A program made the position numbers and the translations under genes. Under the pieces are notes generated by a model. The model saw only the letters and a program-made list of their open reading frames with translations. It ran no database searches and was not told the DNA's origin. 64,000 nt of DNA from Candidatus Moraniibacteriota bacterium (GTDB lineage: Bacteria > Patescibacteriota > Minisyncoccia > Moranbacterales > GCA-2747515). Shown in pieces: positions 7,672 to 57,348 of the stretch. Numbering within the stretch: the stretch's first letter is position 1; every line of letters starts with the position of its first letter. The stretch is taken from NCBI GenBank assembly GCA_027031495.1, contig JALVQA010000004.1, positions 56,070 to 120,069 on the forward strand. Direction: 5' to 3'.

Positions 7672-7677
7672 GATTTC

Positions 7678-8370: not shown

Positions 8371-8426
8371 ACTATATGCATTAAGATATCACTTACCATC
8401 AGCATAGCAAAGTTTTGTGTAAAAAT

Positions 8427-8921
8427 CTATGCTACGCGATGCATAACACGACTTGCACTATGACAAAACGCAACCGCAAGCGCATCAGCCGCATCATCCG
8501 GTCGCGGCACAGCATCAAGGTGAAAAATCGTCTTTACCATCGCCTGCACCTGCGCTTTTTCAGCACGTCCATTGCCGGCAACAGCTTGTTTGACTTGTAG
8601 TGGCGTATACTCACCGATAGCAAGATGTGCACGCTCGGCACACAACAAAAGCACACCGCGTGCCTGTGCAACAGTAATAATTGTCTTTTGATTTTTAAAA
8701 TAAAATAATTGCTCGATACCCATCTCTGCAGGTGCGTACGTTGCAACAATCTGTTCAAAATCCCGTGCAATCTCTCCGAGGCGATCAGCATCACTCTTTG
8801 TGCTCTCAGTTTCAATACACCCGTGTGCAACGTGCTTAACACGACCACCACCGTAATCATCAATTATCGCCCACCCAACAATTGCCGTACCAGGATCAAT
8901 GCCCAAAATCCGCACACTCAT
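8427..8921 (-). CDS. ruvC: Holliday junction resolvase RuvC
   Basis: The N-terminal ILGIDPGTAIVGWAII and the length fit RuvC. It sits directly downstream of yebC, the classic arrangement. Confidence 0.9.
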   Translation of the reverse strand: MSVRILGIDPGTAIVGWAIIDDYGGGRVKHVAHGCIETESTKSDADRLGEIARDFEQIVATYAPAEMGIEQLFYFKNQKTIITVAQARGVLLLCAERAHLAIGEYTPLQVKQAVAGNGRAEKAQVQAMVKTIFHLDAVPRPDDAADALAVAFCHSASRVMHRVA

Positions 8922-13224: not shown

Positions 13225-16071
13225 TTAGTAGACTATGAGATGTACATCTCTTTGCATCTTATTGCCAGCACGATCATGTGCCCAAACTCGCAAGATATGT
13301 TTTCCACGATTTATGCCTAAAGGAATAGTAAAAAACTTCTTCTTTGTCTTAACCTTTCTCCCGTTATCAATCTGATAACGATAATGCTTTATTCTAATAT
13401 CATCTTTTGCGTCCCACCAGATTTTATCACCAGGCTTTTTATGTAAGCGCCTTGGCAAATCAATAAAAACTGGGTCCTCTGTATCTACAATGACAGTATA
13501 CCTTTTTTTCTTAATACGATTGCCCTGAACATCATAAAAGCGTACTTCATATCTAAATTTTCCATCTTTCTTTACTTTAGCATTGAGCCTCCATTTGCCA
13601 TTTTTTCTAATTTCAGCTTTATCAACTGTTCGATTCTTATAACGAAGTTTGACCATTCCATTATATAGATTTTTTGTTGATCCTCTCAGTGAGAATGAGT
13701 GTCTATCAACATAAATCTTTTTACTGTTGATGTCTGTCCAGGGATCACTTTTTGAATCTCTTACTTTATCAACATCTGCATCAATCAAATTTAAAACGTA
13801 CTTATTTACGGCACTACACTGACTGTCTGAAAAAGGCACTTTTGATAAACCATTGTATCTTCGCATCATGACAGAATAAAGCACATTTGCAACTTCTCCG
13901 CGTGTCATTGATTTATTAGGGCAAAACTTTCCATCAGAACAAGGTTTCATCCACCCATTATTCACCATATAATATATATATGCGTGAGCCCAATGATCAT
14001 TAGGGACATCAGAAAAGGTATTGGTGGGGCCGCTGTTGGTTGGTGTGCATTTAGCATATCCGTATGCAAATGCACGCCCAATCAATGTTGCTAGTTGAGC
14101 TCGTGATATTAGAGCTTCAGGACAATACTTCTTTGGCCTCACAGAGCACCCTACCGTAATTTTTCTTGAGGCCAAGGCCTCAACAGCACCAAAGTAGGGC
14201 TGGCCAAAATGCACATCACTAAATGTGCCTACACCATTATAGTTTGTGTCGAAACCAAGGCTACGCGCAATTAACACAGCTGCCTGTCCCCTTGAAATTT
14301 TTTTATCGATACCAAATATAGCATCCCAGACGTTGCCAGTACCGTGTTGCACACCATTTGAAATATGGTGTGCCGATAAGAGCTGGGTAGCTTTCCAGTA
14401 TAAATTATTACGAGGAGTATCATCATAAATGAAAGAAGAGATAGGGATGCTCATATTGAGAAGCTGTTGTTGGACATGTAGAACTTCTACATCTCGTGGA
14501 TTCACACCCTGATGAATTGACAATGACGCTACAATACCAGCTACTTGTCCAATCATCATTACAATAGGCTGCAATCGCGTCGCTCCGTTTGCCAATCGTG
14601 TTACCCCGATATTCTTTTCTGCCGCAATCAGACCATTTATAGATTTTGGGATAAGTGCGCCTAGAGGCACCTGAAATGGACCTACAGCATCAGAAATATC
14701 ATCAGTAGTTTCGCCCAAATACGTTTCAAGATCACTATTTGCTCCACAGTTATGAAGATCTGTTACATAATCACCTACTGCAATCGAATTTACAGAGTTT
14801 CTCACAATACCGGCAGTTCCTGTGCGTTTGATATCTTTCGCTTTTAATGTTTCAATAGGAATTATGCGTGCACTCTCGCGGACATATGCCATAGGTGGCA
14901 TATGTTTTTCTAACCGATCTGGTATATCATTGCAGTTATTTTCCTCAATATTATAGGCAGTATCAAAACCTTCTTCTTTAGCCAAAGACCAATCAAGACC
15001 AAGTGTGTTCTGCCAATAGTAAAGTTGTTGTAATGTTTTCTTTTTTGCTTTACATAACGTATTAAAACGTTTCACTCTGTCATTTAAGAAGCTAGCATCT
15101 GCAGGATAGTCATTTTTTAGGTTGATAATCGTTTTTGTAATATTCGTACCATCTGACGCATGATAATCACCTGAACCAAGAGAGTCGGGCACTCCACGAT
15201 ACGCAAAAAATGGCTTTGGCCCATCAAGTCGCCAACTATACGCGCAGCCCGCTGCACTAGAACCTTCTTGACCAAAGAAACAGTTGTAGTAGTTTGTCCA
15301 TGTTGTTAAAGCAGCATCTGCTCCCGCAGAGTCATCACCAAAAAGCCATACCTTATCATTTTCATCTAAAATTAGGTCGGCAGGAACACCACCACTATAT
15401 TTTCGAACAACGGCTGTATAGGTAATATCCTGAATACATGCGTTTTCTTCTACATTAGAACTAAGGTTATTGGCAATTCTATAAGGTGATCCTGATAACA
15501 TTATGACATCCCCGTATTCTGTCGCATCAATTGTTACCGGCGCCTTCACAGTTTTTTTAACACCATCCTTGTTCTCAATAATTATCCCTGTTACTGTGTT
15601 ATTAGAAACTATTACAGATTTAACAGAATGTCGTTCGATAAGAGTGATGCGTGATTCCCGCTCAATCATGCTACGTAAAATCTTTTGTCCCACAAATGGC
15701 TCAAAGCAATACGTGGAGTCATTCCAATAGCATGTGCCAACAGACTTCCCTAGTCTTGCATAATAGTTTATAACTTGGTCAATAAATTCTTTATAAATAC
15801 CAGCATGTCGATCACGTGGACGAGAGTAGGCAGTATCATCCATGTTAGGTACTCCTGCACATGTCATCTGACCACCAATACAATCCGTTTCTTCAATCAA
15901 AACAACATTCTGCCCCATGCGTGCAGCTTGAATTGCTGCCGATATACCACCTGCACCCGCACCAACAACAATAACATCTGTCTCTATTGCAGCGAGCGCT
16001 TCTGATGTCATCACTAAAAAAAACAATATTACAAAAAAAAGTTTTGACATATTTTGTTTCAAATTTATCAA
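13225..16071 (-). CDS. Secreted FAD-dependent oxidoreductase with three SLH (S-layer homology) repeats and a C-terminal beta-rich domain
   Basis: There is a signal peptide and the Rossmann motif DVIVVGAGAGGISAAIQAARMG. SLH-like repeats are TFSDVHFGQPYFGAVEALA..ISRAQLATLI and TFSDVPNDHWAHAYIYYMVNNGWM..MTRGEVANVL. The protein is 948 aa. Confidence 0.7.
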   Translation of the reverse strand: MINLKQNMSKLFFVILFFLVMTSEALAAIETDVIVVGAGAGGISAAIQAARMGQNVVLIEETDCIGGQMTCAGVPNMDDTAYSRPRDRHAGIYKEFIDQVINYYARLGKSVGTCYWNDSTYCFEPFVGQKILRSMIERESRITLIERHSVKSVIVSNNTVTGIIIENKDGVKKTVKAPVTIDATEYGDVIMLSGSPYRIANNLSSNVEENACIQDITYTAVVRKYSGGVPADLILDENDKVWLFGDDSAGADAALTTWTNYYNCFFGQEGSSAAGCAYSWRLDGPKPFFAYRGVPDSLGSGDYHASDGTNITKTIINLKNDYPADASFLNDRVKRFNTLCKAKKKTLQQLYYWQNTLGLDWSLAKEEGFDTAYNIEENNCNDIPDRLEKHMPPMAYVRESARIIPIETLKAKDIKRTGTAGIVRNSVNSIAVGDYVTDLHNCGANSDLETYLGETTDDISDAVGPFQVPLGALIPKSINGLIAAEKNIGVTRLANGATRLQPIVMMIGQVAGIVASLSIHQGVNPRDVEVLHVQQQLLNMSIPISSFIYDDTPRNNLYWKATQLLSAHHISNGVQHGTGNVWDAIFGIDKKISRGQAAVLIARSLGFDTNYNGVGTFSDVHFGQPYFGAVEALASRKITVGCSVRPKKYCPEALISRAQLATLIGRAFAYGYAKCTPTNSGPTNTFSDVPNDHWAHAYIYYMVNNGWMKPCSDGKFCPNKSMTRGEVANVLYSVMMRRYNGLSKVPFSDSQCSAVNKYVLNLIDADVDKVRDSKSDPWTDINSKKIYVDRHSFSLRGSTKNLYNGMVKLRYKNRTVDKAEIRKNGKWRLNAKVKKDGKFRYEVRFYDVQGNRIKKKRYTVIVDTEDPVFIDLPRRLHKKPGDKIWWDAKDDIRIKHYRYQIDNGRKVKTKKKFFTIPLGINRGKHILRVWAHDRAGNKMQRDVHLIVY

Positions 16072-22360: not shown

Positions 22361-23500
22361 CTATTTGCGAATTGGCATAACAAGATAGAGAAATCGCTCA
22401 TCATCATCACTTTTTGCAACCGGTGTAATAACAACCGGTGATGCCGCACCCGAAAATGCAATACGTACTTTTTCACTACCGCAACGACTTATGCCATCAA
22501 GTACATAACGCGTATTGAGATAGATTTCTTGTACTTCGCCATGCGCTTCAACCTGCAGTGTTGTCACATTTTCTCCACGATCCTGCGACATTGCACTAAT
22601 TACACATGTGCTTTCATCAGGATTTATCGTCACTTTCATATCACTCGTTGTATTATTTGCAAAGGCATCAGCAAGTCGCAGTACGCGCTCACATTCCGCA
22701 CGCGACACAATGATGTGCGTTGCCGTCTCTTGCGGAATAATCTGCTGATAGTCAGGATATGTTCCAGAGATAAGACGCGAAACAATTGTCACGCCATCAA
22801 CTTCAAAAAAGATCTGACCATCACTTATATGCATCATTATCATTTTTGTCGCACTATCAGAAAGAATATATAAAATTTCAGCAATAGCACTCGCCGGGAC
22901 AATAATGGAATCAATGTCTTTTTGTATAGCTGCAGCTTCAATCGGTGCCACACTTTCACTAAGACGGAAACCATCTGTTGCAGCTACACGCATAGTATTA
23001 TCAGTAAAAACTATATTCACACCGGTTAATTCAGGGCGCGCTTCCGTTTTTGCAACACTTATCATCACACGTGACAACACAGAGCGAAATACATCTGACT
23101 GCACTGTTACTTCACCATAGATATTTTCCTTTTGCGGTATCGGTGGAAAATCAACTGGATTATACCCCTTTATTACTGCACGTGACGATCCACTTTCTAC
23201 AGCAATGTCAGTGTCAGATACCTGAGACACAGTTACCTGTGCACCATTGTCAAGTGATGCAATAAAACTATTGAGAAGTTGTGGTGGAATAACAACACTG
23301 CCAACTTCTTCAATTTTGCCACTAATTTCAATACGCACACCCATATCAAGGTTTGTAGCAGCACACGCAAGTATATTATTTTCTGTTGAGATAATGACAT
23401 TTTGTATAATCGGCAACAGCGATTGCTTTGCAAGAGCTTTTGTACTGTAGCGTAGTGCCCGATCAAGGTGTTCTTTTGTGCATGTAAATCGTAAAGCCAT
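22361..23500 (-). CDS. dnaN: DNA polymerase III beta sliding clamp
   Basis: MALRFTCTKEHLDRALRYSTKALAKQSLLPIIQNVII is DnaN-like. The start was moved to the internal Met at 23500 because the track ORF begins in the AT-rich upstream region. The gene follows dnaA. Confidence 0.9.
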   Translation of the reverse strand: MALRFTCTKEHLDRALRYSTKALAKQSLLPIIQNVIISTENNILACAATNLDMGVRIEISGKIEEVGSVVIPPQLLNSFIASLDNGAQVTVSQVSDTDIAVESGSSRAVIKGYNPVDFPPIPQKENIYGEVTVQSDVFRSVLSRVMISVAKTEARPELTGVNIVFTDNTMRVAATDGFRLSESVAPIEAAAIQKDIDSIIVPASAIAEILYILSDSATKMIMMHISDGQIFFEVDGVTIVSRLISGTYPDYQQIIPQETATHIIVSRAECERVLRLADAFANNTTSDMKVTINPDESTCVISAMSQDRGENVTTLQVEAHGEVQEIYLNTRYVLDGISRCGSEKVRIAFSGAASPVVITPVAKSDDDERFLYLVMPIRK

Positions 23501-23732
23501 AATAGTTATTACAATTAAATCAAATATATTTAGTTTATTATTATTAGCGCTGTGGAAAGTGTGGAAAAGTGCGATAAATGTAGTTATTATGCACACACTT
23601 TTCTGTGTATTATTAATGAATAAATGCATGTTTTTGTGTGCAAGACTGTAGATGTGGGATATCCACTTTTATGTGCACAGAGTATAACACAGTTTTATAC
23701 ACATGCACATGCGTACTTATGCACAATTTTAT
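23501..23732. promoter_or_regulatory. dnaA-dnaN intergenic DnaA-box cluster (oriC part)
   Basis: The AT-rich spacer carries TGTGGAAAG (23551), TGTGGAAAA (23560) and an overlapping inverted TGTGGGATA/TATCCAC (23653-23666). Confidence 0.5.
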
Positions 23733-25175
23733 TCACAGAGTGTGTAATTTTCGTTTCAATGTGTCAATGGTATCCTTTAGTGCCGCATCAGCAATAAGTT
23801 CTTTTTCAATTTTACGACACGCATGTATCACTGTTGTGTGATCACGTCCACCGCAGTGTGCGCCAATTTCAGGGTATGAATATGTAAGTTCCTCACGCAA
23901 AAGAAACATGGCAATTTGACGCGGGCGGACAATTGTTTTTTTGCGCACCTTTCCGATAATGTCGTCAGGTGTAATATTGAAATGTTGTGCGACAATATCA
24001 ATAACAGAAGAAGCGCTTCGTGCCGGACGACGATTCACGATTGTTGGTGCAAGAATTTCCTCCACAACAGCGCGCGAAGGGATTTTTTGCTGAAAAGTGC
24101 AGATAGCGACAACTTTATTGAGTGCGCCTTCCAGTTCACGAATATTACTTGCCACATTACGTGCAATGTAGCGTGCCGCATCTTCCGGAAGAATAATATC
24201 TTTTTCATCTGCTTTTTTTTGAAGAATTGCCACACGCGTTTCAAAGTCTGGTTGTGAGATATCAGCAATCATGCCACCTTCAAAGCGGGAACGCAAGCGA
24301 TCTTCCAGTGTTGCAATTGCATGCGGTGGTCTATCACTTGAGATGATAATCTGTTTATTTTTTTGGTAGAGAAAGTTGAAAATGTGAAAAAATTCATCTT
24401 GCGTTTTTTCTTTACCGGCAAGAAACTGAACGTCATCAATAATGAGGAGATCAATTGTTTGATAAAACTTTTTAAAATCTGATATTGTATTGTTATGTAT
24501 AGAATCTATAAGCTCGCTAGTAAAACGCTCTGATGATGTGTAGAGAACGCGCTTTGTTGGATCAGCACTAACAACAGCATTACCAATCGATTGAAGGATG
24601 TGTGTTTTACCAAGACCAACATCACCATAGATAAATAGCGGGTTGTATACTGTGCCAAGCGATTCACTTACAGTGCGACATGCGGCATGAGCGAGTTCAT
24701 TATGTTGCCCAACGACAAAATTACTGAACGTATAGCGAGGGTTGAGACATGTATTATAGGGCGGTGTTGTTTTTGCTGTTGGTTTTTGCTGAATATTTTT
24801 AGCCTGTTGAATTGGTTGTTTTTGCTGCTGTATACTTCGCTGTGGCGCTTTTTTGAGAATTGTGCTGATTGTTGAATTTCCTGTTCGTTTCTGCGTGACA
24901 GCGTCGATAGATTGTGGCGCACGTTGGGGTTGTGGCGAAAGAGTGCAATGGATACGTGTAATACTTTTGTCATGATTGCGCAGCGCTTGTAAAACAATGT
25001 CAGAGCATTTTTTCTCAATCCACTCCTTCGCAAATCCATTCGGTGTAGTGATAGTGGCGCACCCATCGTCGATTGATTGAATTGATGTGTTTTTAAACCA
25101 TGTAATAAAATTTGCACGAGAAATGGAGAGTTCTATTTCACCGAGTGCCGCCGCCCATAATTGTTGAAAATCCAT
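23733..25175 (-). CDS. dnaA: Chromosomal replication initiator DnaA
   Basis: It has the Walker A NPLFIYGDVGLGKTHIL, an AAA+ core, and a C-terminal DnaA-box-binding domain (RKKTIVRPRQIAMFLLREELTYSYPEIG). Confidence 0.95.
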   Translation of the reverse strand: MDFQQLWAAALGEIELSISRANFITWFKNTSIQSIDDGCATITTPNGFAKEWIEKKCSDIVLQALRNHDKSITRIHCTLSPQPQRAPQSIDAVTQKRTGNSTISTILKKAPQRSIQQQKQPIQQAKNIQQKPTAKTTPPYNTCLNPRYTFSNFVVGQHNELAHAACRTVSESLGTVYNPLFIYGDVGLGKTHILQSIGNAVVSADPTKRVLYTSSERFTSELIDSIHNNTISDFKKFYQTIDLLIIDDVQFLAGKEKTQDEFFHIFNFLYQKNKQIIISSDRPPHAIATLEDRLRSRFEGGMIADISQPDFETRVAILQKKADEKDIILPEDAARYIARNVASNIRELEGALNKVVAICTFQQKIPSRAVVEEILAPTIVNRRPARSASSVIDIVAQHFNITPDDIIGKVRKKTIVRPRQIAMFLLREELTYSYPEIGAHCGGRDHTTVIHACRKIEKELIADAALKDTIDTLKRKLHTL

Positions 25176-25404
25176 AGGAAGTAACTCTTTATTTTACGTA
25201 TAGATGATGACATGTTTAGTATAACACGGATAAGCGTTATACATGTGGATAAGTTGATAAATCTGTGGATAAGTTGTGTAAAATGTGTATATTTTGCACT
25301 TTACTCAGGATAAATAGTAAAAAAAGATGCAAGTTATCCACAGAAATAAATAAAAACACTGTGGAAAACAGTGTTTTTATAATTATTGCAATGATATATT
25401 TTAT
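25176..25404. promoter_or_regulatory. DnaA-box cluster upstream of dnaA (oriC / dnaA promoter region)
   Basis: In 229 bp of AT-rich DNA there are TGTGGATAA at 25244 and 25264, TTATCCACA at 25334 and TGTGGAAAA at 25370. Confidence 0.6.
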
Positions 25405-27162
25405 TTACTCAAGTGACTTTTCAACAACTTCTTCTGTGTAGATTTTCAGAACATCACCTTTCTTTATGCGCGTGTGCGTTGTGCAAACAAGACCACACTC
25501 CTTATTTGTTTCAACTTCTTGCACGGCAACTTTGCCTTGCTGTAAACTTTCTATAATACCGTCGCCAATATTTGCGTCATCGCGCGTAATCGTTACATGT
25601 GCGTCCTTTACAACGCGTCCTTTCTTTACGATGCCACCGATAATCATCTTTTCTTTCTCTGTGCGAAATATATCAAGAACTTCGAGTTCGCCTATATCTG
25701 TGCGGATGACTTCTTCCGGAATATGCTCAAGAAGTGTTTTTTTGATATCATCAACCAGTTCGTAGATGATAGAAAAGGTTTTAATAGTAACACCCCTATC
25801 TTCTGCAAGACGTTTTGCGACTGCAGTGACGGTAACATTGAAGCCGTAAATAATAGCATTAGTACTTTCTGCAAGTTTTACATCGGACTCTGTAATATCA
25901 CCAACATGAAGTGCAATATAGTGAATGGCAATTTTCTTTTGTGGAATTGTTGCACAAATTTGTTCTATAGCTTCAAGTGTTCCTTGCACGTCAGCTTTAA
26001 TGATAATCGGTAAATTTTTCTCATTATCATCTACGTTCTTGAGTGATGCGTCTTCCGCAATCTGTTGTGCTTTAAGTCGCGCTATTTGTTTACCACTCAT
26101 TACCTGAATGATGTCATTAACTTGTGGTGCATCGTTGAGGCCGTAAATAGTAACTGCTGCGCTCGGAGGAGCTTTCTCTATACTACGTCCTGTGAAGTCT
26201 TCAATGCGTCGTATGCGTCCATATGTTTTACCTGCACGTATATCCTGACCAACTTTTAGAACGCCGGTCTTTACAACGGCGGTTGCAACAGCACCTTTTT
26301 TCGAATCTACATGTGATTCAAGTACAACGGCAAGGCCGTCACGTGTATCATCTGCGCGAAAATCTTCAACTTCGGCGAGTAAGAGGATATTATCCAAAAG
26401 TTCGCCAATACCAATATTGTTTTTTGCACTAATCTCATTCGCAAGCACCTTGCCGCCCCACTCCTCAATAAGAATGCCATGTTCCGCGAGTTCTTGTTTA
26501 ACTTTTGCGACGTTTGCGCCCGGTGCGTCAATTTTGTTAATAGCGACGATCGTTGGGATGTTTTTTTCTTTGATGTAGTCAATAACCTCCTTTGTTTGCG
26601 GCTTGACGCCGTCGTCAGCAGCGACAATAAGAATGGCAATGTCGGCAATAGATGCGCCACGTTCACGCATGGCGGCAAATGCTGCATGTCCCGGTGTGTC
26701 AATAAACGTAATTGTTTTGCCACGCTTTTTAACTTGGTATGCACTGATGTGCTGCGTAATACCGCCAGCTTCCGTTTCAGCGACAGACGATTTGCGAATA
26801 GTATCAAGAAGCGTTGTTTTGCCATGATCAACGTGACCAAGAATTGTAACAATTGGTGGGCGTGGGCGCAAATTTTTGCCACTTTCACGCTCTTTTTCGC
26901 AAATTGTAAGTAAATCTTCAAGTGTAATAATGTCATCATCACTGACAGAAATGTCCGGTTTTACCGTAAAGCCGAGATCCTCCGCGATGATGCTAGCGGT
27001 TTCATAATCAATCTCCTCATTAATCGTGGCCATAATGCCGTTTTTCATGAGTTCTTCGATAACGCGTGTCACCGGCATAGCAAGAATTTCAGCAAATCGC
27101 TTAACGGTGATAACGGCTGGTAGCGCAACTGTATTGCGTTCTTCTTTTTTAACTTCTTTCAT
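25405..27162 (-). CDS. infB: Translation initiation factor IF-2
   Basis: The G-domain motif [27 protein letters not shown] is present with the usual C-terminal domains. The protein is 585 aa. Confidence 0.95.
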
Positions 27163-27209: not shown

Positions 27210-27716
27210 TTATGAGACGTGTAATTCTTCTTTGAGGGCGTTACGAACAGCACGTTCCTCTTCTTCTGACAACTTGTAAGGTGATGCTGCATTTACAATA
27301 GGTTTTGCGTAAATGCGCGTTCCTTCGCGTGTATGAAGTGATGAAACAACAATGCCATTATTATTTCCGTCAAGAAATGCAATGGCAAAACTCTGATTAC
27401 CGCCAAGATCTTTGAATGGATTATATCGCACAATGCTCTTGCGCCAGATACTTTTTGTAAGCGTATTGCGTATAGAAGCAATTTCCGCACGAATTTTTTC
27501 AATATCGCTACCAAGTATATCAATTTCCTTGCCATGCATCATAATAATATCTTCAAGTGATGCTGCACGCGCACCACGTGTAAGGTATGCTATTGTCGCG
27601 CTAAGTTGTCTATAGCGCACAAAGAGAAAAATGAGAAATACTACAAGCACAATAACAGCGCATGCAAGCGCGATAATAATACCAGCAGAATGATGGAGTA
27701 TGAACGATATCGCCAT
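27210..27716 (-). CDS. DUF4446-like membrane-anchored protein
   Basis: An N-terminal TM helix is followed by IVRYNPFKDLGGNQSFAIAFLDGNNNGIVVSSLHTREGTRIY. Confidence 0.5.
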   Translation of the reverse strand: MAISFILHHSAGIIIALACAVIVLVVFLIFLFVRYRQLSATIAYLTRGARAASLEDIIMMHGKEIDILGSDIEKIRAEIASIRNTLTKSIWRKSIVRYNPFKDLGGNQSFAIAFLDGNNNGIVVSSLHTREGTRIYAKPIVNAASPYKLSEEEERAVRNALKEELHVS

Positions 27717-28440: not shown

Positions 28441-29094
28441 ATGCACAAAGAACTTATTGCATTTAATAAGACGCAACGTACACGTGCACAGGATTTTCGT
28501 GCCGGTGATGTTGTGCGTGTGTTTCGCAAGATTGTAGAGGGAAGTAAAGAACGTATCCAGGTTTTTGAGGGGATGATTGTTGTTACGCGTGGCGGACAGA
28601 GTTCATCACAAATGATTACGGTGCGTAAGGTATCAAATGGTGTGGGTGTTGAGATTATTGTGCCTGTGCAATCACCACAAATTGAAAAGATTGAGCTTGT
28701 AAAGCGTGCAAAAGTACGTCGTGCGAATATTGGTTATATTCGTACAAAGCCGTCAAAGAAATTACGTTTCAAATTTACTGACGCACAGGATCTGGAAAAG
28801 AAAAAAGAGGAAAATGTAGAGGAGAATGCTGATAAGGCAAGTGATGATGCAGATAATCTGACGAAGATCGAGGGTATTGGACCAAAAATTGCACAGACAC
28901 TTGCAGATGCCGGCATCAAAACATTTGCCACACTTGCTGAAGCTGATGTTGCAAAGATTGCGGATATTATCAAGGATGTGCGTGGCAATCATGATCCACA
29001 GACATGGCCACAGCAAGCGGCGCTTGCACGTGATGGTAAGTGGGACGAGCTTTCACAGTGGCAGGATGAGTTAAAAGGCGGAAAGGAGTCATAG
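28441..29094 (+). CDS. rplS: Ribosomal protein L19 fused to a C-terminal helix-hairpin-helix (HhH) domain
   Basis: The N-terminal 115 aa are L19 (RAQDFRAGDVVRVFRKIVEG..RIQVFEGMIVV). After an acidic linker comes IEGIGPKIAQTLADAGIKTFATLAEADVAKIADII, an HhH motif. Confidence 0.85.
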   Translation: MHKELIAFNKTQRTRAQDFRAGDVVRVFRKIVEGSKERIQVFEGMIVVTRGGQSSSQMITVRKVSNGVGVEIIVPVQSPQIEKIELVKRAKVRRANIGYIRTKPSKKLRFKFTDAQDLEKKKEENVEENADKASDDADNLTKIEGIGPKIAQTLADAGIKTFATLAEADVAKIADIIKDVRGNHDPQTWPQQAALARDGKWDELSQWQDELKGGKES

Positions 29095-29851: not shown

Positions 29852-31099
29852 ATGGCGATACTTCACGAGAAAATAAGAAAGATGCTAAAAATGCCAATTC
29901 ATTGGTTTGTGTGGAGTGGCGTCATTTTGTTTTCCTCCTACGCAATTTTGTTGCTGTTGCTTACATACCTATACAACACCCTTGCCATAGAGCAGAATAT
30001 CAATGATATTATTGCCGATAATAATGCAACAACACTTTTTCTTTATCAAAAAAAGATGACGGCACGCAACGGTGTTAATACAGGCAATCTTTTACCAACA
30101 GCGCCATTGCCAAAGATTGACACGGCACGCATGAAACGACAAGGATGTGTTACGGACGGTCTTTTGTCTGGCTATGGCGATGAAGAGAAAAACGTTGAAC
30201 TTATCAATCGTTTGCCATGTTATTATTTGCATCGTGCTGTGGAGACATGGCTTGAGGCACCTAACTGGTACAAAATCAATCGTATTAGGAGTTATATTGT
30301 GCGAAAACCGATTCTTTATGGCATGTTCATCGCGGAAGCAGTCAACACGAAGGAACACTATATCAACACACAAACAGGCAAAAGGTTTCGCTTTAAAAAA
30401 ATGTGTAAGCCGGGTACAAATGGACGGTGGGGCAAAAATACGTGTGTACCTGATTTTGATAGACGGGAGTATCGTGCCTATATAACACAGATTATGAAAG
30501 AAGCGATTGATAATGATATACAAGTATTTCTGATAGGGCAAGTACAAATACAAGATGCGCGGCGTGTAGAACAATCTGATATTGAGGATGTTCTCGCTGC
30601 TGTGCGTAAATATGCAGCGCAAAAAGGTGTTGATATTGCGATTGGCGCACAAACAAATGATGCGACAGATAAAGATTACTTGCGACTTTTTGACTTTATT
30701 GAAGGCGGTGTCGGCCTACATCCTGATGGCAGTATTGAAGATGGACCATGTTTTTCGCGTTATCTCAGAGAACATAACTGGTGTTGGGCTCTTTTATGGC
30801 ATGAAAAATATACAAAAAAAGCACGTAATGTTTTCGTGCACCTTGATTGGAGTGGTATGCATGATGATGATATGATGACGTTTGTCTCAATGGATCGCGA
30901 CATGCGTGCGTATGTGCTCAAGAAACTGTATACATTTTATACTAGACAGGATATAGGATTTCTTTTGCCGGTCTTTACAGCGTTGCCACATGAGCATGAT
31001 GGTTGTTATGGCAATAGAAAGCGCTACTATAGTGCGGATAATGCGTACTCATGCAAAGATGAGGACGTTATAAAAAGTATATTGACAAATTATAAATAA
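29852..31099 (+). CDS. Hypothetical membrane-anchored protein (415 aa)
   Basis: There is an N-terminal TM segment (WFVWSGVILFSSYAILLLLLTYL). Several Cys/Trp-rich segments are present, with no recognisable catalytic motif. Confidence 0.45.
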   Translation: MAILHEKIRKMLKMPIHWFVWSGVILFSSYAILLLLLTYLYNTLAIEQNINDIIADNNATTLFLYQKKMTARNGVNTGNLLPTAPLPKIDTARMKRQGCVTDGLLSGYGDEEKNVELINRLPCYYLHRAVETWLEAPNWYKINRIRSYIVRKPILYGMFIAEAVNTKEHYINTQTGKRFRFKKMCKPGTNGRWGKNTCVPDFDRREYRAYITQIMKEAIDNDIQVFLIGQVQIQDARRVEQSDIEDVLAAVRKYAAQKGVDIAIGAQTNDATDKDYLRLFDFIEGGVGLHPDGSIEDGPCFSRYLREHNWCWALLWHEKYTKKARNVFVHLDWSGMHDDDMMTFVSMDRDMRAYVLKKLYTFYTRQDIGFLLPVFTALPHEHDGCYGNRKRYYSADNAYSCKDEDVIKSILTNYK

Positions 31100-37904: not shown

Positions 37905-38879
37905 TTAGACGATGCACCATGTATTGTCCGTCTTTTTAATTGTACCACTAATTTCAAAGCCACTCGCAAGTGTGTGACCGCCCCCGCCAAGAAGTCTTGC
38001 AATACGAGATGTGTCAATGCCACTGCCCTTTTCTGTGCGAATACTTCCCTTTACAATGCCGTCTTTAAGTTGAATGAGGACAAGTGCAAATGGTGTGTGT
38101 GGCACACTGCACAAAAGTGATGCAACTTCTTTCAACTCTTCTTTTAATTCCTCCTGTGGAATGTTTTTTGTGGCGATGTGACGCCCTGTAATGACAGATG
38201 CTATTGCGCCAGATGGAGAGAGGCGTTTTGCGTTTTTTAGTGCAATGCCCCAGAGTTGTAGTGTATCTAGGCGCTTTGTAAGAAATGACTCTCTTATAAT
38301 GCGTGAAAGAGGAATATGTGCATCAAGAAGATGTGCCATAACATCAAGAACGTGTGCTGACGTATTTGGGTTATGAAAGAGGCGTGTATCACCAAGGATA
38401 CCGATGGCAAGCGCGTTCGCCTCTTTTTGTGTTGGTGTATGTGCAATGTATTCGAAAAAATCATGGAGAATTTCACATGTACTTGATGCTGCCGGATTTG
38501 TAATGAGAAGGTCGGGATGTATATTCGTGTGAGGATGATGATCGATGCCAACTGTGATATGATCACTTTTCGGTAAGTGTTTTATTATCTTGTCGAAGCC
38601 ACGGTCAATGTTATCGCTGCCAATGATGACATCAAATTGCGCGAAATTACTGATATCGCATGTCTGTATGATGTTGTATGATGGTAAAAAAGTATCAAAA
38701 GTATTTGGAAATGCATCGGTGCACGTAAGTGTTACAGGAATATTATGCGTGTGCAGATAGCTATAAAGTGTGACACATGCACCAATGGTGTCAGGATCGG
38801 GGCGTGAGTGAGCAACAAGGAGAACATTTCTTGCATGCGTGAGTATGTATTGAAGTGATGCGTATTTGTGGTTTATCAT
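37905..38879 (-). CDS. DHH/DHHA1 phosphoesterase (NrnA-like oligoribonuclease/pAp phosphatase)
   Basis: The motifs VLLVAHSRPDPDTIGA..., DHH (VGIDHHPH) and the C-terminal GGGH (LLGGGGHTLASG) are present. Confidence 0.8.
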   Translation of the reverse strand: MINHKYASLQYILTHARNVLLVAHSRPDPDTIGACVTLYSYLHTHNIPVTLTCTDAFPNTFDTFLPSYNIIQTCDISNFAQFDVIIGSDNIDRGFDKIIKHLPKSDHITVGIDHHPHTNIHPDLLITNPAASSTCEILHDFFEYIAHTPTQKEANALAIGILGDTRLFHNPNTSAHVLDVMAHLLDAHIPLSRIIRESFLTKRLDTLQLWGIALKNAKRLSPSGAIASVITGRHIATKNIPQEELKEELKEVASLLCSVPHTPFALVLIQLKDGIVKGSIRTEKGSGIDTSRIARLLGGGGHTLASGFEISGTIKKTDNTWCIV

Positions 38880-39211
38880 AAATTAAGATCGTGGAAAATC
38901 TTTTCAATTTTGTCTGCACGTTCTTCTGTATCGTCATAAACAAATGAAATTTTCGGCATTTTTCGTAGATTTAGTTTCTGCGAAAGCGTTTTCTTTATGA
39001 GTCCTTGCTCGTGCTCTAGTGTTTTGATAGCATAGCGTGCTTCAGATGCCGGAAAAACACTTACAAAAACAGTTGATTGATAGAGATCATTTGTTGTGTA
39101 CACGCGCGATATTGTAAGAAAAACATTTGATTTGAGGTGTAATTTGCGCGCGATAATATCGGAGACAATCTGTTTGATAAGTGTATTAATTTTAAGAACG
39201 CGATTTGTCAT
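38876..39211 (-). CDS. rbfA: Ribosome-binding factor A
   Basis: It has RbfA length and pattern (RVLKINTLIKQIVSDII...SRVYTTNDLYQSTVFVSV). Confidence 0.8.
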   Translation of the reverse strand: MTNRVLKINTLIKQIVSDIIARKLHLKSNVFLTISRVYTTNDLYQSTVFVSVFPASEARYAIKTLEHEQGLIKKTLSQKLNLRKMPKISFVYDDTEERADKIEKIFHDLNL

Positions 39212-39272: not shown

Positions 39273-39344
39273 TGATGTGATGTGTCCCCAGACTGAGTCG
39301 AACAGTCATCTAGAACTTAGGAGGTTCTCGTTCTATCCATTGAA
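39273..39344 (-). tRNA. tRNA-Arg (anticodon CCU)
   Basis: Reverse-complement fold: the acceptor is GTCCCCA/TGGGGAC, the anticodon stem AGAAC/GTTCT with loop CTCCTAA, and the T-arm GACTG-TTCGACT-CAGTC. Confidence 0.8.
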
Positions 39345-39492
39345 CTATGGGGACATGAGGAGATACCTTTCTTAATAGAGTATATGCAAAAAGTAAATTT
39401 GACAAACAAAAACGTTTACATATCATTACTATGTAATAGTATATTGTATTTGTCAAGTATATAACAGTGTGATGATGTATGATAAGTGAATA

Positions 39493-40366
39493 ATGTTCCA
39501 CGTGGAACATTGCATACGCATAAAAAGACTTCCTCTTTCTAGCAATAAATATCAATTTTATATGGAAATGTAATTTTCTCTGTGATAGTGTATTTATTAT
39601 ATATTTAGTTTTCTATTTGATCTATTGGCACGATATTACTCCTGCAGCATCTTTTGCGATTACCTATCATGTAAAATTATTAATCTGTATTTCTTAGGCG
39701 CTTTGTATATTGCATATTTAATATATTGGGTCGCTTAATATGTTCCACGTGGAACAATTACGTTGAGTGTGTTACTTTTTAAACAATAAAATGTTCCACG
39801 TGGAACATTATTAAAGTAGTAAATTATTATTCGTATAAAAAGTTACTTTACTAAGATTTTTTATTTTTGGGCGTGTAAATAATGCTGAACAAAAATATTT
39901 TTTATTTCTAAATGGTTCAGAACATACCGGCATACACTCTATTATATAGACGTCTTTATATCTTTTGTGACAAAAAAAGAAAATTGTTCCACGTGGAACA
40001 ATATGCAAGTATTTTTGCATTTTTACGAACCAAATAATAAAGATGGTAATAAGCAACTGCTTTTTTGCGCTGAACATTTTTTATAGGACGCTGTTACTAC
40101 TTTTTAATCAATTATGTTCCACGTGGAACATAATGTCACACGCTTTTTACTTTATGTAAATTTTTGTAGAAAAACTATATTCTTTTGTTATGCTAGATGA
40201 TTCGGTTTTTGTTGATTTGTATAGTGTTGTAATTCTTTTTTTTAAGTAATAATGTTCCACGTGGAACATTTTACTGTTAAAAAAATAAGAATAAAATTTC
40301 TTTTATGTATTCATATTTTTTTGTTTATTTTTTAAAAAAAAGCTTCCCATTGTTCCACGTGGAACA
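39493..40366. repeat. Array of seven identical parS-like 16-bp palindromes TGTTCCACGTGGAACA in a 0.9-kb AT-rich intergenic region
   Basis: Exact copies start at 39493, 39741, 39792, 39985, 40115, 40253 and 40351. Each extends to a 20-bp palindrome A(T/A)TGTTCCACGTGGAACA(A/T)T. Flanking sequence is otherwise unrelated, and the track shows no convincing ORF in 39345-40786. Confidence 0.7.
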
Positions 40367-40786
40367 ATGGGAAATTAATTGTTCTTTGCTTTTCTTTATT
40401 TAGTTAATTTTGATCATGTGCCAACAGAAGGAGAAATGCAGCATATTTCTTAAAACATAGAATATTATTGTTTATCATATAATATCATATATATTGTAGT
40501 ACCTCCATCTTTGTGTATGATAACATCATACATTTACATATGATGTTATACGCTCAAATAGCTCCACTTTGTCATACGTTATATGATTATTGATGCATTG
40601 TGAGATGTGTGCCAAGCCAATAATTTGACATTGTTTCATTTATATTCTATAAATTATTGACTTTATACATAATGTATGCTAATATATTGGTAGGAATAGA
40701 AAAAATGGGTGATTCTCTGTGTAAGGCGTATAAGCGCAACACGGAGTCACCCGTTTTTTAGTCTGATATTCTACTATTACATTGCG

Positions 40787-41668
40787 ATGCGCATTATGCA
40801 AAAAGAAAAACAAAAAAGAAAAATTTATATATTCCGTGATGGTGGCAAGGCATTTGCTTTTATGTACATGCTCTTTCTGCTGTTTTTTGTTGGCGTGTCT
40901 ATCTCGTATGGTAGTGAAGACATTACGGCGCAAAAGATCCTTTCTCTCATTAACAAAGAGCGTATGCAGAGAGGGCTGACACCATTAAGAATGAATGCAA
41001 AATTGCGTGTAGCCGCTGAAAACAAAGTGCGCGATATGGTGCGTCGTAAGTATTTTTCGCATAACGATCCTGATGGTAATGCGCCATGGAAATGGATACG
41101 AAATGCTGGTTACAATTATGCTTTTGCCGGTGAAAATCTTGCAATTGGCTTTACAGATAGCAAAAAACAACATGATGCATGGATGAAAAGTGCGCTTCAC
41201 CGGCGTAATATTCTCAATGCGCAATACAGGGATACCGGTATTGCCACTACGATCGGTACTATTCGTGGCACGCGAGAGCTTGTTGTTGTGCAGTTTTTTG
41301 GTAGGCGTGTTGGTGATGTTGCATCATTTCTTCCAGAAAGTGGTCGGTCTGTGCCGGAGCGTTCGGTGCGCACGCTCTCTCCGCGTGTAAATGGTGCATT
41401 TGCGGAGCGCTTTGGTGTCAGCAATGATGGGCATATATTTAACATGCAAATACGTGACTTCTTCACTGCTGTCGTCAGTAAGGTCAATGCTATGCTTGAT
41501 AACGTAGATACTGTTTTAAGCACCGCACTATCATCAAGGAGCGTGTTAATGCACTATAGCGCGCTAGCTCTTGTTATCATACAGAGTATTGTAAGTTTTG
41601 CTGTGGTTATAAGTATCTTTATTCGCGCACGACGCCGTGCTATTGATCTGGATAGTACCATGTTGTAG
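40787..41668 (+). CDS. CAP/SCP/PR-1 family protein (YkwD-like) with signal peptide and C-terminal TM anchor
   Basis: LINKERMQRGLTPLRMNAKLRVAAENKVRDM..YFSHNDPDG..GENLAIGFTDSKKQHDAWMKSALHRRNILN is a CAP-domain signature. The start is uncertain (40787 or 40862). Confidence 0.65.
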   Translation: MRIMQKEKQKRKIYIFRDGGKAFAFMYMLFLLFFVGVSISYGSEDITAQKILSLINKERMQRGLTPLRMNAKLRVAAENKVRDMVRRKYFSHNDPDGNAPWKWIRNAGYNYAFAGENLAIGFTDSKKQHDAWMKSALHRRNILNAQYRDTGIATTIGTIRGTRELVVVQFFGRRVGDVASFLPESGRSVPERSVRTLSPRVNGAFAERFGVSNDGHIFNMQIRDFFTAVVSKVNAMLDNVDTVLSTALSSRSVLMHYSALALVIIQSIVSFAVVISIFIRARRRAIDLDSTML

Positions 41669-41716: not shown

Positions 41717-43033
41717 ATGGATCATTTTGTCGTACATGGTGGAAAGAAACTGTCTGGCTCAATTGCCGTTAACACATCAAAAAATGCAGCTGTTGCACTT
41801 GTTATGGGCGCACTCATTAATCGCGGTAAAACAACATTGCGCAATGTGCCACGTATTGAAGAGGTTGAGCGTCTCATAGAGGTTTTGAAGAGTATTGGTG
41901 TAAAGATAACACGTGAGGGGCGAGATGTATGCATTATTCCGCCAAAGAGGATAAGTTTAAAAAATATTGATCGCGTTGCTGCAATGCGGACGCGGAGTAT
42001 TATCTTTTTGTTACCAGTTCTTGCGCGCTTTTTAAAAAAATACAAAATTCCACAATCCGGTGGTTGCCGTCTCGGTGCGCGCAGTGTTGCGCCACATGCG
42101 TACGCGCTGGAATCTTTTGGTATTGATGTTGTGGCGACGCGAACGGATTTTAGCGTGCACGCGCGACTCAGTCTGCCACAACGTACGGTTGTACTCTATG
42201 AATCTGGTGATACGGTAACGGAAAATGTGCTTTTTGCTGCCGCTCAGATACCGGGGCGTACGGAGATACACATGGCAAGTGCCAATTACATGGTGCAAGA
42301 TGTTTGTTTTTTCTTGCAAAAACTCGGTGTGAAGATAACTGGTATTGGAACGACACGCCTTGTTGTTGAAGGATGCGCCGATATTAATCGTGATGTTACT
42401 TACGAAGTAAGCGAGGACCCTATTGAGGCGATGCTATTTATTGCAACGGCAATAACAACGCGCTCAAAACTGACAATTACACGTTGCCCAATTGATTTTT
42501 TGGAGCTTGAATTGGAAAAATTACGTCGCATGGGCCTCATTTTTGACGTGAGCAATACTTACAAAGCACGCAATGGCAAGACGCGTCTTGTTGATATTAC
42601 CATATATCCGTCACATCTAAAGGCACTTCGTGAAAAGATCTATGGACGGCCATTTCCCGGCATTAACATTGATAATGTGCCATTCTTTGCACCAATTGCC
42701 GCTGTTGCGCAAGGGCGTACACTCATACATGACTGGGTTTATGAGAATCGCTCTATTTATTTTACGGAGCTGTCACGGCTCGGTGTCAGTGTAACCCTTC
42801 TTGATCCACATCGTGTCTATATTGAGGGACCAACAAAACTTATGCCGGCAGAGATGATGTCGCCACCAGCACTGCGTCCTGCTGCCATTATTCTTGTGGC
42901 GATGCTTGGCGCAAAAGGAACATCAATGTTGCGCAACGTCTATCAAATTAATCGTGGGTACGAGAATCTTACGGAGCGCTTACGCTCAATTGGCGCCGGT
43001 GTTGAACTTGTCAACGATACGTGCAGTGTGTAA
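41717..43033 (+). CDS. murA: UDP-N-acetylglucosamine 1-carboxyvinyltransferase MurA
   Basis: It is EPT-family: GGKKLSGSIAVNTSKNAAVALVMGALINRGKTTLRNVPRIEEV with an overall two-domain pattern. The protein is 438 aa. Confidence 0.85.
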   Translation: MDHFVVHGGKKLSGSIAVNTSKNAAVALVMGALINRGKTTLRNVPRIEEVERLIEVLKSIGVKITREGRDVCIIPPKRISLKNIDRVAAMRTRSIIFLLPVLARFLKKYKIPQSGGCRLGARSVAPHAYALESFGIDVVATRTDFSVHARLSLPQRTVVLYESGDTVTENVLFAAAQIPGRTEIHMASANYMVQDVCFFLQKLGVKITGIGTTRLVVEGCADINRDVTYEVSEDPIEAMLFIATAITTRSKLTITRCPIDFLELELEKLRRMGLIFDVSNTYKARNGKTRLVDITIYPSHLKALREKIYGRPFPGINIDNVPFFAPIAAVAQGRTLIHDWVYENRSIYFTELSRLGVSVTLLDPHRVYIEGPTKLMPAEMMSPPALRPAAIILVAMLGAKGTSMLRNVYQINRGYENLTERLRSIGAGVELVNDTCSV

Positions 43034-55818: not shown

Positions 55819-57348
55819 ATGCTTACTCTATTGCAAAATTTGCTCAAAGTCGTTCTCGCACTTATTGTATTGGTTGCTGCGTATTTTGGCGTGCAACTTG
55901 GTATAGATGATCATCTTTCCAATCAAAATCCAACAACTGCAATTAATGTTAATGTGAGTGACACTGTTGGAGCTGGGGGGAATGGTACTACTCCTGCAAC
56001 ACCGTCACCACCAGCAGGAAATGCTGGTGGCAGTCATTCAGCTGACACATCATTAACTGCTAATAATGGTAATAGCAGTAACAGTAGCGATACAACTGAT
56101 AGTGCGACTAGTGATACAGCTGGCATAGGTAGTATTGGCATAGGTGGTGTTTCACGTGTTGTTATTGGTGATTCTGACGATGATAGCACTGTAGGGAATC
56201 AGTACGTTGATAATAGCGATCATGCAACACCAGAAGTTTTTACTGGTAGTAAGATGATGGTTGGCGGTAATGATGGTACTGTGCGCTACAGTGGCGTTTC
56301 GGCACAGGAGGCTGCGGCAAGTGGTTTTGTTAATGGTGTTTCCAAAAAGAGCATTTGGGATGAGCGGCTTGTACGTCATGTTGCGTCTGCGTACGATGTT
56401 TTTCGCTGGATGAATAAAGTGCAAAACGGCGCTCAAATTAAAGGTGGTGGTTTTGATAGTTGGGAGAATCGTCCAAAAGCAAATGACCCTCTACCGGATC
56501 CGGGTGGATGGACAATGGAGCCATTGGCATATGAGTGGATGATTGATTTTTGTAATCGTGCAAAAGTGGATTGTTGGCTGACGGTACCGGCAGCAACAGC
56601 GGATGATCCGACATTTCCGGAAAAATTTGCAACTCTTGTGAAAAATCAACTTGATCCATCTTTGCATGTATGGGTGGAGTGGGCAAATGAGGCATGGAAT
56701 AGTGGTAACTATGCTGGTGGATGGATTGATGAGAACAAAGGCGGTGACCGTCCCGGGTACACGGCATGCGCAGCGGCGCAGCTGTGGGCCGGCTTTGACA
56801 AGGTTTATGGCAAGGACGATAAACGTGTCGTGCGTGTGTTGGCATGGCAGGCCGGTAATCCTGGCTCTGGGCGCACGCTGTTTGAAAGACTTAATGATCC
56901 ATCATGTAATCCGACAGGTGCAAAGCCGGATGTCTATGCAATTGCGCCATACGTACCAGGTAATCCGGCTGATGCGTCAACATACAATTATGAAAAAATG
57001 AGTGGCGAGCTACATAGTTATGTGGAGGCGGCAATCAGGGAGAATAAGGCGTTGGCTGATGAGCATGGCATTCCACTCGTTACATATGAAGGCGGGCAAC
57101 AATTTTTTGGTAGCCCCGGTGTTGCAACTCTTAATCGCAGTCAAGACATGTATGATTTCTACATCGACTACATGAACACACTTGCGAAAAACGGCATCAG
57201 GTTATTTATGCAATATGTTGGCGTGCCGGAGGAGTATGCAGAAACGGCAGCATATGGTGATTCTGAGGATATTGACAACCCAATGGCATCGCCAAAGTAT
57301 AGAGCGATTATTAATTGGCGTAAGGCGAACGGTATTGCACGCCCATGA
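55819..57348 (+). CDS. Membrane-anchored secreted protein with Ser/Thr/Gly-rich linker and a TIM-barrel glycoside-hydrolase-like domain
   Basis: There is an N-terminal TM segment and about 100 aa of STGN-rich linker. HVWVEWANEAWNSGNY resembles the catalytic-acid strand of clan GH-A hydrolases. The gene is moderately GC-rich. Confidence 0.45.
   Translation: MLTLLQNLLKVVLALIVLVAAYFGVQLGIDDHLSNQNPTTAINVNVSDTVGAGGNGTTPATPSPPAGNAGGSHSADTSLTANNGNSSNSSDTTDSATSDTAGIGSIGIGGVSRVVIGDSDDDSTVGNQYVDNSDHATPEVFTGSKMMVGGNDGTVRYSGVSAQEAAASGFVNGVSKKSIWDERLVRHVASAYDVFRWMNKVQNGAQIKGGGFDSWENRPKANDPLPDPGGWTMEPLAYEWMIDFCNRAKVDCWLTVPAATADDPTFPEKFATLVKNQLDPSLHVWVEWANEAWNSGNYAGGWIDENKGGDRPGYTACAAAQLWAGFDKVYGKDDKRVVRVLAWQAGNPGSGRTLFERLNDPSCNPTGAKPDVYAIAPYVPGNPADASTYNYEKMSGELHSYVEAAIRENKALADEHGIPLVTYEGGQQFFGSPGVATLNRSQDMYDFYIDYMNTLAKNGIRLFMQYVGVPEEYAETAAYGDSEDIDNPMASPKYRAIINWRKANGIARP

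Follow-up and report, generated by a model that had tools for sequence, protein, structure and literature searches.

The locus raises the question of why one intergenic region of a Patescibacterial chromosome should hold seven identical copies of a 16-bp palindrome, and whether together they could act as its centromere. The window, which is the whole 64-kb stretch of DNA that was analysed, contains seven exact copies of TGTTCCACGTGGAACA within 39494-40366 and is without any further exact copy. The copies lie at 39494-39509, 39741-39756, 39792-39807, 39985-40000, 40115-40130, 40253-40268 and 40351-40366, the last of these being the centre of a 30-bp perfect palindrome (40344-40373) with A and T runs flanking it. 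From start to start the distances between neighbouring copies are 247, 51, 193, 130, 138 and 98 bp, and the spacers are unrelated to each other and have a G+C content of 24%, compared to 42% for the window. A sequence-only reading of this DNA had described the array as irregularly spaced at 55-250 bp, which is close to the measured 51-247 bp, and had placed it at 39493-40366, of which the end is right and the start is one base early. It had also assigned the array to AT-rich intergenic DNA, which agrees both with the composition of the spacers and with the lack of any credible ORF in 39355-40795.

The claim that the palindrome occurs seven times here and nowhere else in the window is confirmed by a mismatch-tolerant scan and by shuffling. 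With up to 3 mismatches allowed, the 64 kb has one match outside the array, at 49297 inside a glycosyltransferase gene and with all 3 mismatches, and dinucleotide-preserving shuffles gave a mean of 0.23 matches at the same threshold with none of the 100 shuffles reaching 8. Even half-sites of the palindrome are found only twice in the window outside the array.

The palindrome itself is familiar from other bacteria. It fits the consensus tGTTNCACGTGNAACa, and in three species a parS proven by experiment agrees with it at 16 of 16 positions. In P. aeruginosa and P. putida ParB binds this very 16-mer (PMC4368675; PMC7022226, Table 1), and in B. bacteriovorus purified ParB bound it and slid off once CTP was added, as followed by biolayer interferometry (10.1101/2023.06.27.546657). 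The positions -1 to -3 beside the copies favour W, A and A and no preference is apparent beyond them, thus the effective site is approximately AAW-parS-WTT. A histogram of the 36-66 bp spacings between neighbouring sites gave no clear periodicity that would suggest helical phasing.

When metagenome contigs were scanned at the DNA level alone for pairs of exact sites separated by 20-50 bp, at least 120 loci were recovered. Among the 120 listed, a parA homologue is found in at least 53, directly beside the pair in those loci that were inspected, with a parB homologue in at least 34 and dnaA or dnaN in at least 7; the exact palindrome is therefore tightly linked to par operons and origins in unrelated lineages. 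The pair pattern is also matched by 19 viral contigs, the fetched stretches of which hold just 2-3 exact sites each. Between 5 and 10 sites are found in 11 of the 120 pair loci listed, and Myxococcus xanthus has 22. On this point the sequence-only reading has to be toned down, as it had called seven perfect sites in under 1 kb unusual and such arrays are commoner than that suggests.

The array is not itself the origin of replication. The genes dnaN and dnaA occupy 22361-25175 on the minus strand, with dnaA at 23733-25175, and clusters of DnaA boxes flank dnaA, one lying upstream of the gene at 25244-25368 with three perfect TTATCCACA boxes and one box with 1 mismatch, the other at the dnaA-dnaN junction (23560-23737) with five 1-mismatch boxes. 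The cumulative GC-skew reaches its minimum at 22-25 kb, and no DnaA box with up to 1 mismatch is present in or near the array, between 36841 and 42802. With the boxes and the turn in GC-skew at dnaA, and no boxes in the array, the possibility that the array is oriC is ruled out and it is placed 14 kb away, the first parS being 14.1 kb from the cluster of perfect boxes and the start of the array 14.3 kb from dnaA. The sequence-only reading had put the array about 14 kb from dnaA and had pointed to the GC-skew minimum as a check on its relation to oriC; the distance is right, and the minimum lies at dnaA and not at the array.

The neighbourhood of the array is that of a chromosome. On the left the slot is bounded by a tRNA-Arg(CCT) gene (39282-39354, minus strand) that is kept in all relatives, beyond which rbfA (38876-39211, minus strand), in an operon with genes for a DHH-family phosphoesterase and UDG, provides the left syntenic anchor. 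On the right it is bounded by a CAP-domain gene on the plus strand (40796-41668, the frame being open from a GTG at 40709 and gene callers using the ATG at 40796), which is followed by murA (41717-43033, plus strand), the right syntenic anchor that was used for finding relatives, and by mreB, likewise on the plus strand. Gene and tRNA calls thus agree with the earlier placing of the array between tRNA-Arg/rbfA and a CAP-domain gene. The intervening region (39355-40795) is non-coding and AT-rich on the basis of an ORF scan, spacer G+C and synteny with relatives. An 88-aa ORF on the minus strand (39811-40077) that is listed by gene callers was treated as spurious, as it has no Pfam match and spans parS copy 4.

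The right bound of the array is formed by an element on the plus strand (40657-40760), in which a promoter-like TTGACT-17-TAATAT is followed by an A-tract/stem/U-tract hairpin upstream of the CAP gene. The hairpin is very stable, with 40686-40800 folding at -43.5 kcal/mol (z -6.2), and the element is conserved in the relative L087 (71% match to L087 6577-6646). An Rfam scan of the window gave tRNA families only.

The window includes housekeeping chromosomal genes, among them dnaA, dnaN, infB, murA, mreB and tRNAs. The nearest matches to its MurA carry the label Candidatus Moranbacteria or Parcubacteria, and type IV secretion pilins, lamin-tail-domain proteins and an L19-HhH fusion are gene content typical of Patescibacteria. 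The suggestion that the array resembles a 'plasmid-style' centromere is not supported, in view of this chromosomal context, the irregular spacing and the lack of an adjoining par operon, and a sopC-like repeat array of a plasmid or phage was rejected on the same housekeeping context, 51-247 bp spacing and missing par operon together with the unrelated spacers.

Whether the array is conserved in related genomes had also been raised as a check, and it is clear that it is. Five genomes with 68-82% MurA identity were found, mainly by individual look-ups of MurA homologues; a contig scan with a MurA profile returned mostly Streptomyces, with L007 the sole member of the clade to come from it. In five of five the slot between tRNA-Arg/rbfA and CAP-murA-mreB is filled with an array of exact copies, the number of which ranges from 4 to 13. 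There are 4 in L007, which is a minimum given a scaffold gap, 5 in L087, 13 within 810 bp in L088 and 7 in each of L091 and L232, with no ORF in L007, L088 and L091, whereas L087 and L232 have the array inside a Wzy_C gene that is intact. The window together with L007, L087, L088 and L091 has 36 copies, every one of them perfect, as are another 7 of 7 in L232, and no degenerate copy with 1-3 mismatches was found in the arrays of the window and the five relatives. When the window region was compared by blastn to L007, L087, L088 and L091, the only matches beyond the sites were the tRNA and two short stretches of L087. Perfect 16-mers amid diverged spacers read as the signature of selection, or of homogenisation, acting on the 16-mer alone. 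No parS was found in more distant Patescibacterial murA loci.

The identity to a proven site, the proximity to oriC, the conserved slot and the linkage to parAB elsewhere together make the reading of the array as a ParB-loading centromere well supported. It is very probably the chromosomal centromere, and predicted ParB loading zone, of a Moranbacteria-like Patescibacteria bacterium, much as the sequence-only reading had predicted when it described a parS centromere or strong ParB nucleation zone close to the origin.

The centromere appears to have a history within a gene. The gene in the slot of L087 and L232 is an intact member of the Wzy_C (O-antigen-ligase-like) family, scoring 50 bits in Pfam against a cut-off of 31.7, and all 5 and all 7 of the respective parS copies are within its ORF. 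In L232 the seven sites share a single frame, are read V-P-R-G-T and form tandem units of 42 bp, in frame, within three loops, and in L087 four sites are read VPRGT and one FHVEQ. The two proteins have 35% identity (E 5e-72) and carry their parS-coded loops at homologous positions.

Nor is this limited to the two relatives. A search with the L232 protein gave 297 homologues, named as O-antigen ligase family proteins of Moranbacteria, Parcubacteria or Patescibacteria, and parS-encoded pentapeptides are found in 113 of the best 120 of these, in all three frames. The counts within the best 120 of the 297 are 305 for VPRGT, 211 for FHVE and 164 for CSTWN, with a median of 5.5 and a maximum of 17 motifs per protein, and none of the 120 MurA sequences used as controls contains one. 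The word index of the homologue search gives an advantage to proteins having VPRGT words in common with the L232 query; as this query is without the FHVE and CSTWN frames, such a bias cannot explain the occurrence of those two. None of the 680 motifs falls in a TM-like window, compared to 14% of all positions, the motifs being found in hydrophilic loops only, and the length of the protein rises with the number of motifs (r = 0.53).

None of the frames of the palindrome contains a stop codon, which is why parS can be accommodated in the loops of a polytopic membrane protein, and as the peptides encoded in the three frames are unrelated it is the DNA that is constrained and not the protein. The same arrangement is seen in L233 (Candidatus Moranbacteria), where 11 of 11 exact sites are inside the ORF, and in L234, whose ORF contains 9 exact sites together with 3 variants of parS that have one mismatch, there being no others in 22 kb in either case. 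The arrays of L176, L200, L201 and L222 (6-10 sites), which are among the densest from the DNA-only scan, are also wholly inside Wzy_C-family ORFs. In a literature library with few subscription journals, no paper was found that deals with parS of CPR bacteria, with these peptides or with this arrangement.

How the window came to have sites and no gene can be partly reconstructed. The slot is without an ORF in the window, L007, L088 and L091. For a coding remnant of Wzy_C in the window, tblastn queries with the proteins of L087 and L232 found parS-coded positions only, whether parS was masked or not, as did the HMM of the Wzy_C family on six-frame translations of the window, and the array is thus rejected as a recognisable pseudogene, there being no coding similarity beyond those positions. 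A possible vestige is a 25-nt match on the plus strand (39381-39405) to the first codons of the Wzy_C gene of L087 (tatATGCAAAAA..ATTTGACAA), with 88% identity by blastn and an E of 6e-4 in a small pairwise search, which is weak when taken alone. A MurA tree, which is a single-gene neighbour-joining tree with no support values, interleaves the gene-bearing genomes (L087, L232) with those that are ORF-less, and the gene-embedded form also occurs in far more distant Patescibacteria; the simplest history is therefore an ancestral array embedded in the gene. The reading frame would then have been lost at least twice, with the sites retained or even expanded. It seems probable that the ancestral array lay in frame in the hydrophilic loops of the Wzy_C protein and that the lineage of the window lost the frame and kept the sites.

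Loss of the gene could also be taken to mean that the array is no more than a decaying pseudogene remnant, with sites that once served the Wzy_C gene or its regulation, are now inert and have no centromere role. That the slot is occupied by a gene in L087 and L232 but not in the window would fit this, and the extreme AT-richness of the spacers is what might be found in decaying DNA. However, where the ORF is missing the four arrays still have 7, 4, 13 and 7 copies, all of them perfect and none degenerate, despite their dissimilar spacers, and drift would have degraded the 16-mers too. The differing peptides across three frames in the Wzy_C family further point to a constraint at the level of DNA, and an inert remnant is very unlikely.

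A retained centromere brings with it the matter of ParB and ParA. These were searched for with Pfam on ~45 ORFs, with phmmer using Spo0J and Soj queries, and with profile HMMs (--max) from 37 ParB and 48 ParA sequences. Neither was found by Pfam, phmmer or profile HMMs in the 64-kb window and 10 kb past each of its ends (~84 kb), nor by phmmer and profile HMMs with --max in the array loci of the relatives (~5 to 22 kb each). ParB is common in the phylum, as a profile of five Patescibacterial ParBs has at least 8000 homologues, with the best 120 matches all being of Nomurabacteria/Paceibacteria type. The five come from other Patescibacterial murA loci, in which a canonical parB with a GERRxR CTP-binding box is directly upstream of murA, in the place that the array and the CAP gene have in the window. 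No parS within 2 mismatches was found at these five parB loci (5-21 kb), where matches with 3-4 mismatches occur only more than 1 kb from parB. Thus, with the array loci being without ParB, no recovered Patescibacteria locus holds both a ParB gene and this parS.

Canonical ParBs carry an N-terminal peptide that activates ParA. The five Patescibacterial ParBs start right at the ParB-box region and so are without this peptide, and no parA was found beside any of the five parB genes. By analogy, the two features are hints of a ParA-less system such as that of S. pneumoniae. Some ParB-parS systems can do without ParA (PMC7022226).

It could be argued that the palindromes are merely parS-like and are bound by a protein other than ParB, for example a regulator of transcription or another nucleoid protein, given that ~84 kb around the array is without a ParB gene and that the Patescibacterial parB loci recovered are without a nearby parS. 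Another binding protein is highly improbable, as the 16-mer has 16/16 identity to a proven parS and exact pairs of it occur beside parAB in dozens of unrelated contigs. Nor is the distribution that of a regulator, the sites being found at a single locus and not upstream of many genes, with two half-sites elsewhere in the 64 kb.

The symmetry of the sites allows for a role in which no protein is bound at all. Among the seven copies, four have scores typical of a terminator-like hairpin, in the case of copy 7 on both strands, and extra private dyad symmetry of at least 4 bp is found in 10 of the 36 copies in the window, L007, L087, L088 and L091 compared to 1.7 in controls; in addition, the copies in relatives are in frame inside a gene, in the manner of Rickettsia palindromic elements. 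They might then be structural hairpins (terminators or insulators) or selfish REP/RPE-like palindromes. Neither role would need an exact 16-mer, yet the 16-mer is invariant and equal to parS, each genome has its copies at a single locus and not dispersed, and T-runs follow some copies only, so that hairpins have as slight a chance of being the explanation as another binding protein does.

Two independent short-read assemblies of the same organism (ENA and Logan) both break inside the array, with a contig that ends at window position 40232 and has 5 sites, and a contig that starts at 40224 and has 2. As continuity over 40224-40232 rests on the window's own assembly, seven copies could be a minimum. 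An assembly artefact, with repeats collapsed or chimerically joined, would be in keeping with breaks at 40232 or 40224 and contigs overlapping by 9 bp only, but it is extremely improbable, as the contig ends independently carry their 5 and 2 exact sites with unique spacers and five other genomes from other samples have arrays in the same slot.

As a centromere the array might work as follows. A ParB dimer would bind each parS, close as a CTP-dependent clamp and slide onto the flanking DNA. Seven perfect sites in 0.9 kb would raise the rate of loading, leading to a large ParB complex 14 kb from oriC, and this complex would organise and segregate the origin region, probably via recruitment of SMC condensin and possibly without ParA. 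In vitro, ParB-dependent condensation is stronger with more parS, and 5-7 copies were needed in a magnetic-tweezers assay (PMC8299390). The binding of ParB in this organism, the effect of dosage and the roles of SMC and ParA are what we infer by analogy with systems of this kind.

A further and more tentative idea is that the centromere and the polytopic membrane-protein gene are functionally coupled in Patescibacteria, which is rather unlikely. In one variant the 5-17 parS in a Wzy_C-family gene would tether the ParB-bound origin to the membrane via transertion, in which the protein is inserted into the membrane during its transcription and translation, and alternatively the occupancy of the sites by ParB might gate expression of the envelope gene. 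If coupling did occur it would be an undescribed mechanism of segregation or origin anchoring for very small, perhaps ParA-less, cells, and the ORF-less array of the window would be a natural 'uncoupled' variant.

The Candidate Phyla Radiation makes up a large share of bacterial diversity, and to our knowledge chromosome segregation is unstudied in it. The locus in the window points to a dedicated, very dense, stand-alone centromere, whilst its relatives suggest that the usual Patescibacterial solution is to place the centromere in the loops of one conserved membrane-protein gene. This is an extreme DNA-level signal overprinted on coding sequence, with three frames giving three unrelated peptides, and it raises the question of whether the link between centromere and membrane-protein gene is functional. 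The parS array may help to mark the origin region where a CPR genome is in fragments, and it would explain the short-read assembly breaks at the locus. The gene-embedded and naked arrays, which have from 4 to 17 sites, offer a natural series for relating parS copy number to the loading of ParB.

In comparison with known systems, the array is like those of P. aeruginosa, with parS1-4 as four oriC-proximal sites, and B. bacteriovorus, with two sites, in that the same 16-bp sequence is found near the origin in multiple copies. It differs in having seven perfect sites in 0.9 kb and in having no parAB operon within at least 34-49 kb. In P. aeruginosa, ParB at the four parS sites gives a 50-kb ChIP peak (PMC7022226), and Streptococcus pneumoniae has an orphan ParB-parS system with four parS sites and no ParA (PMC7022226). 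The system of the window may resemble the latter in being ParA-less, although its number and density of sites are far higher.

The parS sites of Myxococcus xanthus are clustered near the origin, over more than 10 kb near parAB. This bacterium has 22 of them, with a consensus that ends in G, and its ParABS is essential (PMC7022226, Table 1). The window shares with it the large number of parS, but has approximately one site per 125 bp and stands alone. The sopC of F consists of 12 tandem 43-bp repeats beside sopAB on the plasmid. It is similar in having many ParB-type sites in ~1 kb, but it is regular and of another sequence, whereas the array of the window is chromosomal and irregular, has unrelated spacers and carries the chromosomal consensus.

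For a palindrome in coding sequence, as in the relatives of the window, there is the parS within spo0J of Bacillus subtilis, which is an intragenic parS, and there are the Rickettsia palindromic elements, which are in-frame palindromic insertions. The relatives differ from an intragenic parS of this sort in having 5-17 perfect copies in one conserved Wzy_C-family gene, in three frames and in loops only. Origin-proximal clusters of parS, centromeres with many sites such as that of M. xanthus and recurrent dense arrays in metagenomes are already known; what sets this case apart is the embedding of the centromere, throughout the family, in a single membrane-protein gene, of which the array in the window would be a gene-less derivative.

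Between 5 and 17 perfect parS copies lie in frame within a Patescibacteria gene for a Wzy_C-family (O-antigen-ligase-like) membrane protein. The gene was found in the relatives L087 (5184-6563) and L232 (approximately 7332-8891), in the loci L233 (10001-12058) and L234 (10001-11653), and also in the metagenome loci L176, L200, L201 and L222. All three reading frames of the palindrome are used, giving the peptides VPRGT, FHVE and CSTWN, which are confined to the hydrophilic loops of the protein, and these motifs are present in 113 of the 120 best Wzy_C-family homologues. Some of the embedded sites are arranged in duplicated modules, with L234 having a unit of ~100 bp that contains three sites and is itself present three times.

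A further property of the sites is a dyad symmetry that extends beyond the palindrome, by up to 15 bp per side, and is private to single copies, the flanks being unlike from one copy to the next. Amongst the 36 parS copies of the clade (the window and its relatives L007, L087, L088 and L091) the symmetry extends by at least 4 bp at 10 sites, compared with 1.7 (maximum 6) when the right flanks are permuted; for paired sites of unrelated metagenome loci 17 of 180 are extended, compared with 2.6 in the control. Copies of this kind include those at 40344-40373 in the window, 5897 in L087, and 8283 and 8364 in L088. It is possible that the extra symmetry results from hairpin-templated symmetrisation, from a function as a terminator or from the mode in which new copies arise.

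In two independent short-read assemblies of the window's organism the array is interrupted beside a T-run, with two contigs ending at window position 40232 (L001 and L002) and others starting at 40224 (L003) and 40484 (L004). Contigs of relatives (L089, L090 and L092) likewise begin within their own arrays, and it seems that metagenome-assembled CPR genomes tend to break at parS arrays. Immediately upstream of the CAP-domain gene is a promoter-like element, TTGACT-17-TAATAT, followed by a very stable hairpin with A and U tracts at its sides (window 40657-40760), the fold of 40686-40800 having an energy of -43.5 kcal/mol (z -6.2). The layout is kept in L087 (6577-6690), and the hairpin could be a leader attenuator or, where there is an upstream gene, its terminator.

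The dnaA gene of the window is flanked by bipartite DnaA-box clusters, three perfect boxes upstream (25244-25368) and five with one mismatch at the dnaA-dnaN junction (23560-23737), which likely mark oriC. The metagenome contig L194, with a DnaA close to that of the window (E 7e-142), has five exact parS sites within 255 bp (13583-13837), at the end of the fetched stretch and only ~270 bp upstream of dnaA, and therefore beside or inside oriC.

Within the window a DUF4446 gene (27210-27716) immediately precedes infB (25405-27162), whilst rbfA adjoins the array 11.7 kb away, compared with the order DUF4446-infB-rbfA in the locus L026 (11624-14026). A fusion of ribosomal protein L19 to a C-terminal helix-hairpin-helix domain (28441-29094, 217 aa) is conserved in the contig L001 and in the relative L232. 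Two large ORFs, 29852-31099 (415 aa) and 55819-57348 (509 aa), have no Pfam match; judged by gene order and size only, the position of the 415-aa protein is apparently conserved in L087 (798-2039), L088 (1268-2491), L091 (2824-4158) and L232 (2857-3963).

L007 and a further contig, L008, have Patescibacteria-type murA synteny, yet their record titles name MAGs of 'Pseudobdellovibrionaceae' or 'Bdellovibrionales', and several more such contigs are filed under 'Saccharibacteria'. Mistakes of binning or labelling in the public records probably account for these names.

In five other Patescibacteria parB is divergent from and immediately upstream of murA (L023 7511-8572, L026 1559-2599, L027 1098-2087, L031 8544-9545, L048 2726-3724), with neither parA nor a parS-like site close to it in these five loci. 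Their ParBs share 65-85% mutual identity and begin directly with the ParB-box region, lacking the ParA-activating peptide that is usual at the N-terminus of ParB.
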